Source of the DNA: an uncultured Gemmatimonadaceae bacterium
GTDB lineage: Bacteria > Gemmatimonadota > Gemmatimonadetes > Gemmatimonadales > Gemmatimonadaceae
NCBI GenBank assembly: GCA_963740355.1
Contig: CAVUDW010000002.1
Span: 1,504,001-1,568,000 of the forward strand
Length of the DNA: 64,000 bases
Direction: 5' to 3'
Shown here piece after piece: positions 24,055 to 29,178 of this stretch. The stretch's first letter is position 1, and each line of letters opens with the position of its first letter. The position numbers were made by a program, and so were the translations under genes. Below the pieces are notes generated by a model that saw nothing but the letters and a program-made list of their open reading frames with translations, was not told the DNA's origin and made no database searches.

Positions 24055-25987
24055 CGTGGTCACACACTACATCGTGCGGCTGGACCCGCTCGAGCTCGTG
24101 TTCAACACGAGGCCGATCACGGCCCTCCTCGGCTACACCGCCGACGAGTACGGCACGATGACGCTCGAGACGGTGAACCGCCTCATACATCCCGATGACG
24201 TACCCGCGCTGCAGGCGCACATCTCACGACTTCACCTGCTGGCGGATGGTGAAGTCGCGTTATTGCGGCACCGGATGCGCAATGCGGCCGGCGGCTGGGG
24301 GTGGATCGAAGTCCGCGACTCGGTCTTCACACGCACGGCCAGCGGCACGCCGGAACAGGTGATCGGGACGGCGCGTGAAGTCACCGCGCAGATGCGAACG
24401 GCGGAGGCGCTGGAGTCGAGTGAGGCCCGTCACCGCTTGTTGGTGGAAACCATGCTGCAGGGGGTGGTCCACCACGGCGCCGATGGGAGCATCATCGCGT
24501 TGAATCCCGCTGCGGAGCGCATCCTCGGCCGACCCCGCGATGACTTCATCGGCAGCGATCCATCACGCGAGGAGCAGCACACCATTCGTGAGGACGGTTC
24601 GGCGTTTCCTGGAGCGGAGCACCCATCGAGTGTGGCGCTTCGTACTGGTGCACCGATCCATGGCGTCGTCATGGGCGTCTACAACTGGGATCGGCGCGAG
24701 TATCGCTGGTTGAGCGTCGATGCGGTGCCACTGCGTCGTCCCGGAGAGTCGGTGCCGTACGAGGTCTACACCGTCTTCGAGGACATCACGGATCGCCTGC
24801 GGGCCGAAAAGGCGTTGCGCGACGCACACACGCGGAAGGATCATTTCATCGCCACGCTGGCGCATGAACTGCGGAATCCGCTGGCGCCGATTCGTCATGC
24901 CGTGGCCGTGCAGCAGCGTCGCGCAGCTGCCGCCGGTGATCCGGAACTGGCCTGGTCGCAGGCGATCATCGACCGACAGGTCGGACACATGTCGCGGTTG
25001 CTCGACGACCTGCTGGACGCGTCGCGGATCGCGAGCGGCAAGCTCGAACTGCGGCGCGAACTGGTCGGGTTGAACGCCGTCATCGCACAGTCGATCGAGA
25101 CGGCGCGACCGCAGATCGACGCGTTGCGGCATGCGCTGTCGGTGTCCTTGCCGACACCGGACGTTTACGTTGACGGCGACCCGATTCGTCTCGCACAGGT
25201 GTTCTCGAACCTGCTCACGAATGCTGCCAAGTACTCCGAGGCTGGTGGCAGCATCGCGGTGACAGCGAGTCGTGACGGGGACGGCGTGGCCGTCACCGTG
25301 CGCGATACTGGCATCGGCATCGATGCGGCGAACCTGACGCGAGTGTTCGAGATGTTCGGCCAGATCGATGCCGCGATCGATCGTTCGCAGGGCGGGCTCG
25401 GCATCGGACTCTCGCTGGCACAGGCGCTGGTGACGCTACACGGCGGCCGCATCACCGTGCAGAGCGACGGTCTGGGAAAAGGCACGTCATTCACGGTATT
25501 CCTCCCCACCTCTCCTGACGCAGCAATGCCAGACGAACAGTCGTCCACGCCGGAGCTTGCAGATCCTGTCACCCCGCGCCGGTTGCTGGTGGTGGATGAC
25601 AACCGTGACGGCTGTGATGCGCTCGCGACCCTGCTCGGCATGATGGGGTTCGAAGTGGCTACCGCCTATGACGGGCTGGAGGCCGTGGAGCGCGCCGTGG
25701 ACGGCACGCCGGACGTGGTGCTGATGGATGTTGGCCTGCCGCGCCTGAACGGCTACGAGGCCTGTACGGCGATCCGCGCCACCGTGGGTGGTGAGCGTAT
25801 CGTGATGCTGGCGGTGACCGGCTGGGGCGCGGCTGCCGACCTGCGCAACGCGACGCAAGCAGGGTTCGATGCCCACCTGGTGAAGCCGATCGACATGCAG
25901 TGGCTTGGCCAGCTGCTGCCGTTGCCGCGGTCGGAAGTGCAGCGGCTGGAGACGATCCGGCGGTTGCGGCTGGGGTACGAGGCGTGA
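24002..25987 (+). CDS. PAS-domain hybrid sensor histidine kinase/response regulator
   Basis: Two PAS domains, LAHELRNPL, NLLTNAAKY, GGLGIGL, receiver VVDDN..DVGLP..KP. Start is ATG 24002 or GTG 24056. Confidence 0.88.
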   Translation: MLPSSTLPIDIDCEPLTDVVTHYIVRLDPLELVFNTRPITALLGYTADEYGTMTLETVNRLIHPDDVPALQAHISRLHLLADGEVALLRHRMRNAAGGWGWIEVRDSVFTRTASGTPEQVIGTAREVTAQMRTAEALESSEARHRLLVETMLQGVVHHGADGSIIALNPAAERILGRPRDDFIGSDPSREEQHTIREDGSAFPGAEHPSSVALRTGAPIHGVVMGVYNWDRREYRWLSVDAVPLRRPGESVPYEVYTVFEDITDRLRAEKALRDAHTRKDHFIATLAHELRNPLAPIRHAVAVQQRRAAAAGDPELAWSQAIIDRQVGHMSRLLDDLLDASRIASGKLELRRELVGLNAVIAQSIETARPQIDALRHALSVSLPTPDVYVDGDPIRLAQVFSNLLTNAAKYSEAGGSIAVTASRDGDGVAVTVRDTGIGIDAANLTRVFEMFGQIDAAIDRSQGGLGIGLSLAQALVTLHGGRITVQSDGLGKGTSFTVFLPTSPDAAMPDEQSSTPELADPVTPRRLLVVDDNRDGCDALATLLGMMGFEVATAYDGLEAVERAVDGTPDVVLMDVGLPRLNGYEACTAIRATVGGERIVMLAVTGWGAAADLRNATQAGFDAHLVKPIDMQWLGQLLPLPRSEVQRLETIRRLRLGYEA

Positions 25988-26046
25988 TGGGTGGGCGTAC
26001 ACGGGAATACCGGCGTAAGTCGTTGCACGGCCTGCGGTTAGGCGCC

Positions 26047-26238
26047 GATCAAGGGGTCGGAGATCTTGATCGATCAAGGGGTCAGAGATCTTGATCGGGA
26101 AAGTCTGGAGCTAAACACTTGCTCCGTAATGAGTTAGGCTCAGATCAAGGGGTCAGAGATCTTGATCGGGCGATTATGAAGCTAAATCGTTGCCCCTCTT
26201 CGCTTTAGGCTCAGATCAAGGGGTCAGAGATCTTGGTC
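26047..26238 (+). repeat. Left REP-like array: 4 copies of GATCAAGGGGTC(A/G)GAGATCTTG(A/G)TC
   Basis: Copies at 26047, 26072, 26143 and 26214; the last three have a 71-bp period. Each has 7-bp inverted arms GATCAAG/CTTGATC. Confidence 0.92.
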
Positions 26239-26267
26239 GGCCGAATCGCGAGGAGTCGCGCATCGCA

Positions 26268-26978
26268 TTAGCGATGGTCGTTTTGCCAGCCCACACCCCT
26301 GCGATCGCCGCCGTGCTGCTGTGGCGTCACCCGGCGCTTCAACTGCGCCTCCAGCCGACGGAGCGCGCGGCTTTCACCCACTGCTGCACATCCGAGGCTC
26401 GCGGCGCGAATCGCCTCAATTTCTCGCCTTGGTGCATCCGCGCTGCAAAAGGCTCGATACGCAGCTTGTCGCGCGTCCGGCGTCATGCCGAGGGCATTGT
26501 ATGCACCGTGCGAGGTCAGGAGTTCGTCACAGCCCCCGTGTGCCAGGTGTCTGTGGCTCGACCACTCGTACTCCACCGCGTGGCGCACGATTCCAGCGCG
26601 AACGGGATTGAGGTCGATGTACCTACAGCACGCCAGAAAGTACCGATCGCTACCCACGATCATTGAGTGGAAGCGGCCGTCCCACAGAGTCCCGCTTCTG
26701 CGGTGCCGAGTATTCCAGTGTCGCACGAATCGACTGCCAACACGCTGCATGAGTCGCGAGGGACCGAGTGGATGCGACGCCGTAAGCAGAAGATGAATGT
26801 GGTTTGACATCAGCGCATACGCGTGCACGGCGCACGATGTGCTCCTGCTGGCGTGCATCAGGATTTCGCGGAAGTGCGCAAAATCCATTTCGTCGTGGAA
26901 CTTGAGCTCGCGATTGTGGCAGCGCTGAGTCAGGTGGATTGGAAAGCCTGGTGCAATGAGTCTTGGCATGCGCGCCAT
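26268..26978 (-). mobile_element. REP-associated tyrosine transposase (RAYT; HUH/Y1 superfamily)
   Basis: HLTQRCHNR, HUH motif MSNHIHLL, GTLWDGRF, catalytic RYIDLNPVRAG, YEWSS; flanked by REP-like arrays. Confidence 0.9.
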
Positions 26979-27204
26979 TTGCGCCTCGGTGCGTGAGCCG
27001 ACAGCTCGGTGGGAAACGCGTAAGGATGCCGCAGCCTCAAGCGCCGCAGACGGCGTGTGAACGACGCGATTCTATCGCTTGGCGCTTCTCAACACCGCAC
27101 CTGATTCGCGCATCGATCATCGCGTGCACGCCGGCGTATCATTCCTTCAGCCGTTTCGCGGTGGCGCAGCAGCAAAGGAGCACTGATCTGAGCGAGACTG
27201 AGCC

Positions 27205-27371
27205 GATCAAGATCTCTGACCCCTTGATCGAGACGTAAGGCTCGTACTACGAAGGCTTTAGCCCGCGAACTCGCCGATCAAGATCTCTGACCCCTTGATC
27301 GAGACGTAAGGCTCGTACTACTAAGGCTTTAGCCCGCGAACTCGCCGATCAAGATCTCTGACCCCTTGATC
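27205..27371 (-). repeat. Right REP-like array: 3 inverted copies GATCAAGATCTCTGACCCCTTGATC
   Basis: Copies at 27205, 27276 and 27347 (71-bp period); exact reverse complement of the left-array consensus. The two 46-bp linkers differ by 1 nt. Confidence 0.92.
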
Positions 27372-27491
27372 GGCTTTCACCTTGATCGGATGCAGCCGCC
27401 TGCGCCAAAAACAACGCGCCCCGACCAGTCTCCTGATCGGGGCGCGTCGTCATCCGCGCATCGCAGCGCGTCACATCAAACGTTCATCGCA

Positions 27492-27908
27492 CTATCGACA
27501 GATCCACGGCGTCGCGTTTTCGCGCGCGGTGCTCCGGCGCGCACTCGTCTCGTCGATGGCAGTGAACGTCACCTCGAGAAACCCGTCGTCCTGACTCTGC
27601 GATGTGCACTGCATTTCCTTGCGGACACTGAAGGCGCCGTTCGCATCGGCCTTGATCGGGCCGAACGCAATCGCCTGGCTGGTGTTCGGCGGCGGCGACC
27701 CGGTGAGCTTCACCGGTCCGTTCGGCGTGAAGTTCGAACCCGTGATGGTGATCACGGGACCCGTCGCCTGACGCTGGATGCTCACGCTCAGCTTCAGCGG
27801 CGGTGTGGCCTGCGCATGGACCGCCATCGGCAGCGCAGCAAGGGCCAGCCCGAACAGGACAGTTGCCCCGATCGAGGACCAAGTGCGACGAGCCTGGTGG
27901 ACACGCAT
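27492..27908 (-). CDS. Hypothetical secreted protein (small, beta-rich, two Cys)
   Basis: AGGAG plus ATG 27908; signal peptide ending AVHA-Q; ITITGSNFTPNG...ADANGAF resembles Ig-like folds. Confidence 0.7.
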   Translation of the reverse strand: MRVHQARRTWSSIGATVLFGLALAALPMAVHAQATPPLKLSVSIQRQATGPVITITGSNFTPNGPVKLTGSPPPNTSQAIAFGPIKADANGAFSVRKEMQCTSQSQDDGFLEVTFTAIDETSARRSTARENATPWICR

Positions 27909-28113
27909 GAACGACTCCTGAAAAAGGGGTACCTGCAATCGAGGACGATTGCCGGCTGTCGAACGACACACCCACGACGACACACGTACATCGTATCGCG
28001 TGTAGGTGCAATTCGACACTGTAATATACACCGGTTCCGCGCTTGAGTTCACTGCGCCAAGTGGTTTGTTTCCTTGCACTTATGCCACTGCTCCGACCGC
28101 TGGTCAGGCTCCG

Positions 28114-29178
28114 ATGAGCCTGCGAGATCGCCTCGACGACGCCGTAGCCCGCGCTGCCGTGGTGGAGCAGGAGCTGCTGGACCCCCGGACGGTCAAAGAT
28201 CCACGGCTTCTCGCCACCCTCGGCAAGGAGCACCAGCGCCTCCAGGACGTCGTGCGCCTGGCCGCCGAAGTGCGCCAGATCGAGCGCGAACTGGTAGAAT
28301 CGCGCGAAATGGCGAACGGCGACGACCCCGATTTCGCCACCGAGGCGCAGGCGGAGGTCGTACGGCTGGAAGAGCGCCTGGAACAACTCGACCGCGATCT
28401 CTATCCGCTGCTGGTGCCGCGCGATCCGCTCGACGATCGGCCCGCAATCATCGAAATCCGCGCCGGTACCGGCGGCGATGAAGCGGCGCTCTTCGCGGCC
28501 GATCTCTGGCGCATGTACGAACGCTTCTTCGCCCGTCAGGGATGGCGCATCGAAGTGATGTCGATGTCCGACGGCACCCTCGGTGGCATCAAGGAAGTCA
28601 TCGCACGTGTCGACGGCAGTGGCGCCTTCGGCACGATGCGCTGGGAGTCCGGCGTGCACCGCGTGCAGCGCGTACCGGCCACCGAAACCCAGGGGCGCAT
28701 CCATACCTCCGCCGCCACGGTGGCCGTGCTGCCGGAAGCGGAAGAAGTCGACGTCACGATCGAGGACAAGGATCTCCGCATCGATGTCTTCCGCTCGTCA
28801 GGGCCTGGTGGACAGAGCGTCAACACCACCGACTCGGCCGTGCGGATCACGCATATCCCCAGCGGGATCGTCGTCAGCCAGCAAGACCAGAAGTCGCAGC
28901 TGCAGAACAAGATCAAGGGGATGACGGTGCTCCGCTCCCGGTTGCTCGACCAGCGTCTCGCGAAGCTCGAGGCGGAACGCTCGCAGATGCGCAGCGCGCA
29001 GGTCGGCACCGGCGATCGCTCGGCCAAGATCCGCACCTACAACTATCCGCAGGATCGCATCACCGATCATCGGATCGGATTGTCTTTGCATGGCATGCAG
29101 TCGGTGATGGATGGCAACATCGGGCCGTTCATCGACGCACTGCAGGAGGCGGAAGTGAAGGAGCGGCTGGGTGGCTGA
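28114..29178 (+). CDS. prfA: Peptide chain release factor 1
   Basis: EIRAGTGGDEAALF, ESGVHRVQRVPATE (PxT), GPGGQSVN; followed by prmC. Confidence 0.96.
   Translation: MSLRDRLDDAVARAAVVEQELLDPRTVKDPRLLATLGKEHQRLQDVVRLAAEVRQIERELVESREMANGDDPDFATEAQAEVVRLEERLEQLDRDLYPLLVPRDPLDDRPAIIEIRAGTGGDEAALFAADLWRMYERFFARQGWRIEVMSMSDGTLGGIKEVIARVDGSGAFGTMRWESGVHRVQRVPATETQGRIHTSAATVAVLPEAEEVDVTIEDKDLRIDVFRSSGPGGQSVNTTDSAVRITHIPSGIVVSQQDQKSQLQNKIKGMTVLRSRLLDQRLAKLEAERSQMRSAQVGTGDRSAKIRTYNYPQDRITDHRIGLSLHGMQSVMDGNIGPFIDALQEAEVKERLGG

Follow-up and report, generated by a model that had tools for sequence, protein, structure and literature searches.

The BIME-1 class of bacterial interspersed mosaic elements (BIMEs) from Escherichia coli is also known under the names RIP and RIB. 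Dimers of repetitive extragenic palindromes (REPs) with length-conserved spacers, among them the REPINs, were reportedly described by Bertels and Rainey in 2011 and by Di Nocera in 2013, and target and cleavage tetranucleotides are used by the IS200/IS605 elements. According to an excerpt of one study, the conserved L linker of BIME-1 frequently carries a site for IHF (PMC3333891), as the initial annotation of the DNA analyzed here had correctly stated, and an excerpt of another describes REP dimers that keep the length of their spacer and not its sequence, along with head-to-tail dimers and clusters (PMC3733652). The IHF consensus appears as WATCAANNNNTTR in part of one source (PMC5963220) and as WATCARXXXXTTR in part of a second one, where the first consensus base is taken as the centre of the site (PMC2709558, Table 1 legend) and where the interval between an enhancer and a sigma54 promoter is the classical IHF place for a DNA-bending site. 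Here, we analyzed a locus within 64,000 nt of DNA from an uncultured Gemmatimonadaceae bacterium (contig CAVUDW010000002.1, positions 1,504,001 to 1,568,000; this whole stretch is called the window, and unprefixed positions are counted from its first letter), in which a predicted REP-associated tyrosine transposase (RAYT) gene stands between arrays of 25-nt REPs and 46-nt linkers. The linkers were found to share a palindrome that also occurs as a solitary site. Comparison within the genome and across the order suggests, with a probability of about 0.6, that each 71-nt unit combines a predicted site for a host DNA-bending protein with a RAYT hairpin, and would be a lineage-specific analogue of E. 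coli BIME-1/RIP.

A palindromic scaffold in the linkers

The pattern formed by the linker scaffold and the REP gave 102 matches in this genome and none in 19 congeneric genomes, except for one REP fragment in G010. Since this linker was not found in the congeners, conservation was measured on the population of linkers within the genome. For this, 70 linkers were picked by spacing alone, and these gave 68 unique 46-mers. The initial annotation had written the linkers of the window as TAA-N4-TT(G/C/A)-N12-TTA-N6; all five read so, each ends exactly at a REP, and the two inner linkers of the left array (L2 and L3) match at 30 of 46 positions, as it had stated. Across the 68 linkers, the kept bases were T16 (54 linkers), A17 and A18 (64 each), T23 (50), T24 (65), G25 (49), T38 (64), T39 (all 68) and A40 (51), and conservation was also observed at T7 (58), T8 (55), C31 and A32. 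The least conserved columns were 26, 27 and 36, where the commonest base was found in 23–27 of the 68, and other columns dropped to 35–45%. The annotation had allowed that TAA and TTA might turn out no better kept across homologues than their neighbours, and the reverse was observed among the linkers of this genome, with A17 and A18 at 64 and T39 at 68 against 23–27. The conserved scaffold bases are A or T, though the genome has a G+C content of 65%. When 46-mers were compared with the genomic background, at least six of the nine scaffold positions were present in 101 of the 207 located upstream of a REP and in 229 of 200,000 taken at random. The four linkers without A17 and A18 came from one array (C2:1949145) with an unrelated linker. 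In that array, which spans C2:1949088-1949510, the REP is a variant beginning with CATC and the 71-nt period is kept, and the 46-nt linker lacks the scaffold and opens with a partial REP.

The symmetry of the motif had been missed by the initial annotation, which was right about the conserved TAA, TTG and TTA columns, overlooked a CAW block (W, A or T), and did not recognize TTA as the mirror of TAA in a dyad. The linker frequency matrix was self-complementary about column 28, with a score of 3.71 and a next-best centre of 1.2. Moreover, a position weight matrix built from the linkers also matched the opposite strand of many of them in a register shifted by 9 nt, indicating that the linker motif is palindromic. 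Written as a dyad, it reads T16 A17 A18 / T23 T24 G25 // C31 A32 W33 / T38 T39 A40, and its core, columns 16–40, is a 25-bp imperfect palindrome, TAA-N4-TTG-N5-CAW-N4-TTA. Counted from column 28, the CAA of an IHF site (+3 to +5) and its TTR (+10 to +12; R, purine) fall on C31 A32 W33 and T38 T39 A40, and the mirrored arrangement is found on the other strand; six of the nine specified positions of WATCAANNNNTTR are conserved on each strand. A separate, small A/T-centred palindrome with a consensus of about GGAATTCC was noticed in linker columns 3–10, for example at 26003–26010 and 26099–26106.

Within arrays, parsimony gave minimum numbers of changes of 1, 0 and 0 for T16, A17 and A18 and of 0 and 0 for T38 and T39, while the other 29 linker columns averaged 5.8 and the REP columns 1.7, all of these counts carrying some bias because they use units pre-selected for at least six of nine scaffold positions. 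Four congeners (G007, G010, G015 and G018) have dense arrays of the same REP with many partial REP fragments; their linkers are short (1–60 nt) and unrelated to those described here, and the linker module is therefore lineage-specific. The RAYTs of congeners are only 50–59% identical, which marks the genus as a deep one, where saturated free positions in the linkers are unsurprising.

Solitary copies of the palindrome and sigma54-type motifs

The perfect palindrome was found at 24 places in the genome, 16 of them within 150 nt of a REP and eight solitary. Allowing one mismatch raised the number to 89, with 60 near REPs and 29 solitary. Four control patterns, made by reversing the blocks, reversing the whole motif or using other spacings, had no perfect place and 1–3 places with one mismatch. 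At two mismatches the class is noisy, as the controls reach 12–86 places with 8–86 of them solitary, and many of the 43 solitary sites with two mismatches are probably due to chance. Among 41 genomes of the order, 35 had perfect palindromes, including all 19 congeners (1–7 per strand; reversed control, 0–1 per strand). RAYT homologues were detected in 15 of 40 relatives and in none of 16 genomes belonging to two families, 12 of which have the palindrome. Its occurrence in relatives where neither REP nor RAYT was detected indicates that the motif belongs to the host lineage and not to the REP/RAYT system. At the positions left free by the search, base preferences of linkers and solitary sites were correlated (left half, r = 0.56; right half, r = 0.44), and shifted controls did not exceed 0.12.

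A rough open reading frame (ORF) call, filtered by third-codon-position G+C (GC3), placed 28 of the 29 solitary sites with at most one mismatch in intergenic DNA. The genes beside them include gyrB, with the site 46 nt upstream of its start, groES, three pilin-like genes, genes for a FlgG-like rod protein and for FliQ/FlhB, namZ, and a divergent DUF1499/LpoB pair. The site between the divergent DUF1499 and LpoB-like genes lies at C2:2077329-2077353, and its pair of half-sites (TAACTCGTTG ... CAATTCGTTA) was seen in 11 other genomes of the genus, as judged from the half-sites alone. Five solitary palindromes stand in a 33-kb region (C2:156118-188977) with the FlgG-like and FliQ/FlhB genes, three precede consecutive pilin-like genes at C3:1261471-1263450, and several palindromes of these flagellar and pilin regions have sigma54-like motifs 19–41 nt from their centre.

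The genome contains rpoN, and sigma54-like -24/-12 motifs were searched as consensus matches only, with GG and GC required and no more than two other mismatches. The set of solitary sites comprised 72, i.e., the 29 with at most one mismatch and the 43 with two. Within 62 nt of these 72 sites, 14 motifs were observed, and nine of the 14 belonged to the 29 better sites. The motifs pointed away from the palindrome, and the distances from its centre to the GG were 19, 19, 19, 21, 30, 30, 30, 31, 40, 41, 51, 53, 53 and 60 nt. Elsewhere, two motifs were found at 63–260 nt and two pointed toward the site, and random places gave 0.06 motifs per 520 nt. Two of the pilin sites had weaker motifs, with three mismatches, beginning 41–42 nt from the start of the site. 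In five related genomes, loci were obtained for 19 of 32 places; six of these 19 had such motifs, at 29, 30, 41, 41, 43 and 49 nt, and none was seen at any other distance or in the other orientation. When the 20 distances were analyzed together, a Rayleigh test at a period of 10.5 nt, a value chosen after seeing the data, gave R = 0.79 and p of about 3.5e-6. This sigma54-type placement applies to solitary copies only, and to a part of them (14 of 72 here and six of 19 in the relatives).

The RAYT locus, its REP arrays and the GTAC boundary

The gene at 26268–26978 on the minus strand encodes 236 amino acids, with a Y1_Tnp domain at residues 14–122 (PF01797, E = 2.9e-12). Its product scored 79.7 bits with the NCBIfam model NF047646 REP_Tyr_transpos, just below the cut-off of 80, and its sequence shows an H-I-H motif as well as the Y of RYIDLNPV. 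The homologues are named REP-associated tyrosine transposases, the nearest of those with a name being from Gemmatimonadaceae metagenome-assembled genomes (MAGs). As judged from these features, the predicted product is a RAYT-type Y1 (HUH) transposase, and tblastn detected a single copy in the 5.45-Mb genome, plus one paralogue with 37% identity.

The gene lies between inverted REP arrays, the left one on the plus strand and the right one on the minus strand. The left array opens with the tetranucleotide GTAC at 25997–26000, which forms its outer 5' boundary, as in the tally of array starts given below. It continues with the terminal linker L1 (26001–26046, core 26016–26040), which has no REP before it, two abutting REP hairpins (26047–26071 and 26072–26096), linker L2 (26097–26142, core 26112–26136; single-strand folding z = -1.76), a REP (26143–26167), linker L3 (26168–26213, core 26183–26207; z = 0.06) and the innermost REP (26214–26238), which has one mismatch. 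On the other side, where REPs and linkers alternate on the minus strand, the right array consists of its innermost REP (27205–27229), linker L4 (27230–27275; z = 0.42), a REP (27276–27300) that folds as single-stranded DNA into a stem of 8 bp and a loop of 11 nt (z = -4.1 on one strand and -5.9 on the other), linker L5 (27301–27346) and the outermost REP (27347–27371). With respect to the 12 specified positions of the palindrome, L1, L2 and L3 have one mismatch each and the two right linkers four each, with degenerate cores at 27236–27260, where the outer TAA and TTA of L4 are kept around an inner TTC and ACG, and at 27307–27331 in L5. Upstream of the left array, a hybrid histidine kinase gene ends at 25987. 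Within its coding sequence, a weak match to the Rfam malK-III RNA (25224–25315, minus strand; 27.5 bits against a gathering threshold of 50, E = 0.004) was observed, and is probably due to chance. Just outside the right array, a G+C-rich inverted repeat (27401–27460) has 28-nt arms that are 79% complementary and 4 nt apart; it lies just past the stop-codon ends (27484 and 27492) of two overlapping unannotated minus-strand ORFs, and looks like a terminator.

Throughout the genome, the REP, a 25-nt imperfect palindrome, was found in 207 copies with at most four mismatches, 62 of them perfect and 76 with one mismatch. The copies are mostly intergenic and fall into 45 clusters, with one singleton only. 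Among 104 same-strand neighbours spaced 40–110 nt apart, the distance was exactly 71 nt in 70 cases, corresponding to the 46-nt linker, and 72 nt in eight. Neighbouring REPs within 260 nt of each other were on the same strand in 138 of 162 pairs, and arrays contain up to eight REPs. The linker ends C45, C46 and G1, G2 lengthen the REP stem, and the REPs are flanked by CC and GG; the GTAG/CGTC tetranucleotide of the Di Nocera superfamilies was not found next to the hairpin. Nine of 19 congeners have the REP, which was not detected in any of the 21 genomes from other genera. In two variants, at C3:1111822 and C3:1572685, the 3' arm is fully complementary and gives a perfect 11-bp stem, and next to these the common REP has the look of a derived form whose inner stem is mismatched. 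Some ordinary genes, like the RAYT gene, have REP arrays on both sides (C2:1758332-1760062, C3:2457273-2458285 and C2:127674-129420). They encode a Vgb_lyase-like beta-propeller protein, a Rieske-domain protein and a TetR and cupin pair, none of them a transposase.

Next to the 22 linkers that do not abut a REP, inspected by eye in 33 rows, GTAC stood exactly before 16 and shifted by 1 nt in three more. As the genome frequency of GTAC is 0.0027 per position, a binomial calculation with n = 23 gives 1.6e-36. The tetranucleotide is located at array starts, 46 nt upstream of the REP hairpin, and some arrays repeat the order REP-GTAC-linker at 75–76 nt. Upstream of GTAC, the only preference was a pyrimidine at -1 (15 of 16), and no conserved sequence was found 3' of the arrays. 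By analogy with the IS200/IS605 elements, GTAC may be a RAYT cleavage or target tetranucleotide. Linkers of one array are mostly identical at 38–46 of 46 positions, and 98 of 101 linkers had no match above 36 of 46 in any other array. Being alike within arrays and unlike between them, they indicate that arrays amplify locally and that every locus keeps an old linker type of its own; the arrays have probably grown by local head-to-tail amplification of units. Recent transposition of units between loci was also considered and was rejected, as a single near-identical pair of arrays (43 of 46) was seen, 1.5 kb apart.

Interpretation and comparison with known systems

Two DNABII genes are present in the genome. 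One, at C2:2446812-2447096, is closest to IHF/Hbb chains and to IHF-beta/alpha models; the second, at C2:591891-592172, more closely resembles HU. Both proteins have an RNPxTG arm. A homodimer of a single IHF-like subunit would be expected, in our view, to select a symmetric IHF half-site, and the palindrome offers TAAGTCGTTG-N5-CAACGACTTA as the candidate consensus that an architectural DNA-binding protein of the order would recognize. In the literature searched, which did not extend to supplements, nothing was found on REPs or IHF in this phylum. In the mechanism that we propose, the 25-nt REP, an imperfect hairpin extended by CC/GG, would be what the neighbouring single-copy RAYT recognizes, and the linker core would be a copy of a cis-element used across the order as a solitary intergenic site. 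This core would be bound in double-stranded form by a dimeric host architectural protein that bends DNA, most likely the homodimer of the single IHF-like DNABII protein. The contact positions alone would be constrained, so that the N blocks could drift near saturation with length and scaffold fixed, and full units begin after GTAC. The idea that a bending site is joined to a RAYT hairpin at fixed spacing had been put forward in the initial annotation, and it withstood all the tests applied; it gains from the 71-nt period, the RAYT gene, the conservation without covariation and the phased solitary sites; it loses from the missing WAT and from DNABII scores below the IHF cut-offs. Likewise, the resemblance to an IHF site noted there holds for CAA and TTR, found at the IHF offsets in both halves, and fails for WAT and for the palindromic form of the site.

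Several observations weigh against this interpretation. Conservation is lacking at the WAT of WATCAANNNNTTR, columns 26–28 being the most variable, column 33 is T more often than A, and the palindromic form of the site contrasts with the asymmetric one bound by E. coli IHF. Both DNABII proteins scored below the NCBIfam IHF cut-offs (90.6 against 115 and 82.3 against 111). The right-array linkers L4 and L5, with mismatches at four of 12 positions, keep only the outer TAA and TTA. The central 5 bp of the linkers are G+C-rich, with G at -2 shared by 43% of linkers and by no solitary site among 48. The conserved T7/T8 and the palindrome resembling GGAATTCC fall outside what the 25-bp motif accounts for, and the T7/T8 patch stands at -21/-20, while solitary sites are enriched in A+T at -18 to -16. 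Linker sites may be weaker than solitary sites or used differently. The predicted sigma54 promoters are consensus matches, the 10.5-nt period is post hoc, the five-site flagellar cluster (C2:156-189 kb) keeps a specific regulator as a live alternative, and the noise of the two-mismatch class and the pre-selection of units, described above, count on the same side.

Such a regulator leads to the reading to which we would still allow a minor but real chance, namely that another dimeric sequence-specific protein outside the DNABII family, for example a flagellar/pilus sigma54 regulator or a global transcription factor, uses the palindrome as its operator, and that the REP unit has captured this site. 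It would account for a true palindrome with a 10-bp half-site of about TAAGTCGTTG, as seen for many helix-turn-helix dimers, for the missing WAT, and for five solitary sites in one flagellar region and three before pilin-like genes. However, the sites before gyrB, groES, namZ and lpoB have no sigma54-like motif, the CAA/TTR geometry equals that of IHF, and centres 19–60 nt upstream of the -24 GG, in several helical registers, are more in line with an architectural factor than with an enhancer-binding activator. The solitary sites also bear on the improbable proposal that the scaffold is a set of single-stranded cis signals for RAYT, i.e., cleavage or guide sites like those of IS200/IS605 ends, acting without any host protein. 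Full units start after GTAC, which recalls the tetranucleotides of those elements, and the linker occurs in this genome only with this REP family. TnpA-REP of E. coli cleaves within BIME linkers, according to an excerpt (PMC3333891). Nevertheless, the palindrome is frequent even in genomes and families that yielded neither a RAYT homologue nor such a REP, its strand symmetry is not expected of single-strand signals, and solitary sites correlate with promoters.

Three further explanations were compared with the linker data, and each appears far less probable. Because TAA with TTA and TG with CA are complementary in register, and long stems can be drawn in some single linkers, the linker could form a hairpin, as single-stranded DNA or RNA, with the scaffold as the kept part of a structured element; the tests performed leave this very improbable. 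In a set of 31–32 dereplicated linkers sharing less than 75% identity, mutual information singled out no pair of columns, helix scans gave observed minus expected pairing of at most 0.10, and the RNAalifold structure was empty. In 53 dereplicated linkers, nine variable dyad pairs gave 168 Watson-Crick pairs, compared with 169.6 ± 8.3 after permutation (P = 0.6). Four linkers of the window folded no better as single strands than their shuffles (z = -1.76 to +1.06), and an Rfam scan of positions 25000–28500 at E ≤ 1 returned no family beyond the sub-threshold malK-III match. A long stem pairing columns 9–18 with 38–46, first seen by eye, was ruled out, as it showed no excess pairing. A functionless scaffold, in which the shared bases are leftover identity of diverged copies of an ancestral linker, has an equally slender chance. 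All linkers are homologous and arrays amplify locally, as it requires, but neutral decay cannot leave five columns at 94–100% beside neighbours at 35–45% in about 45 independent arrays, and constant length, A/T bases in a genome of 65% G+C and the same motif at unrelated solitary sites would go unexplained. The initial annotation had also raised the option that the N blocks are information-bearing segments, like spacers that match foreign or host DNA, and to this we attach hardly any likelihood. Variable segments of fixed length between identical repeats would suit it; the linkers, though, have a scaffold in common and, within arrays, a shared descent. When 101 linkers were compared by BLAST with the rest of the genome, no match went below E = 0.14 per query (19–21 nt with mismatches), and the left array had no match among 50,697 phage and 72,556 plasmid records, the N blocks of 4–12 nt being too short to test singly. 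The option found no support in the host genome or in these phage and plasmid records.

Returning to the proposed unit of bending site and RAYT hairpin, we consider it doubtful, though conceivable, that the bending site takes part in array growth, with the IHF-like protein bending the linker and the REP-bound RAYT joining a GTAC-bounded 71-nt unit precisely to the end (...GATC) of a REP already in place. If it did, arrays would extend unit by unit at 71 nt, as IHF steers Cas1-Cas2 to the leader-proximal repeat, and a domesticated transposase would have created about two-thirds of the best sites of the protein (16 of 24 perfect places and 60 of 89 with at most one mismatch), making the arrays a lineage-specific layer of nucleoid organisation or a protein sink. 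The candidate consensus is testable in a poorly studied order, and the protein is predicted to act where pilin and flagellar genes have sigma54-type promoters. Moreover, as most of the strongest sites of the genome lie in about 45 REP arrays, they might give a handle on how RAYT and REPs reshape the distribution of a nucleoid protein.

When compared with E. coli BIME-1, the present elements are alike in their RAYT-associated REP hairpins, their fixed-length linker with a CAA-N4-TTR core and their many dispersed intergenic copies (BIME-1 as excerpted from PMC3333891). Unlike BIME-1, a single inverted pair of REPs around the L linker, they form direct head-to-tail arrays of up to eight REPs, their site is palindromic and lacks WAT, the linker is variable outside the scaffold, the linker module was found in a single genome out of the 20 sampled in the genus, and the kin of the RAYT are in Gemmatimonadaceae MAGs and not in Enterobacteria. 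Tandem multi-copy arrays of REP and linker are shared with BIME-2 and atypical BIMEs, for which models of RAYT-mediated amplification exist according to the same excerpt (PMC3333891); however, BIME-2 has alternating inverted REP types and short variable linkers with no IHF site, whereas here one REP type is directly repeated with a fixed 46-nt linker containing the motif. As in REPINs and REP dimers, the REPs are conserved and the spacers are conserved in length and poorly in sequence, but the GTAG/CGTC tag is replaced by CC/GG flanks and the spacer motif is shared with non-REP sites. GTAC, at 16 of 22 free linker starts, may be comparable to the tetra- or pentanucleotide at the 5' boundary of IS200/IS605 ends, upstream of a subterminal hairpin; the inverted arrays around the RAYT gene differ from such ends. 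The solitary palindromes resemble the IHF sites of sigma54 promoters in their helically phased position upstream of -24/-12 motifs and in equal CAA/TTR offsets, and differ from them in being symmetric, in preceding also genes with no sigma54-like motif, and in that the binding protein is here a predicted one. By analogy only, IHF-directed integration at CRISPR leaders likewise sets a bending site and a repeated palindromic unit a constant distance apart, within an array extended one unit at a time (PMC13769266; bioRxiv 10.1101/2023.05.26.542337; both in excerpt), although CRISPR spacers are unrelated to each other and match foreign DNA, and the linkers here are interrelated with no foreign matches. 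Collectively, direct arrays of up to eight REPs, a strict 71-nt period, a WAT-less palindrome, the absence of GTAG/CGTC, a GTAC boundary and occurrence in one of 20 genomes of the genus set this system apart from the known REP systems. REPs with an IHF site are known from E. coli, and the version described here has its own REP sequence, orientation, linker and site symmetry; the same pairing, built independently, suggests that the association is functional and not accidental.

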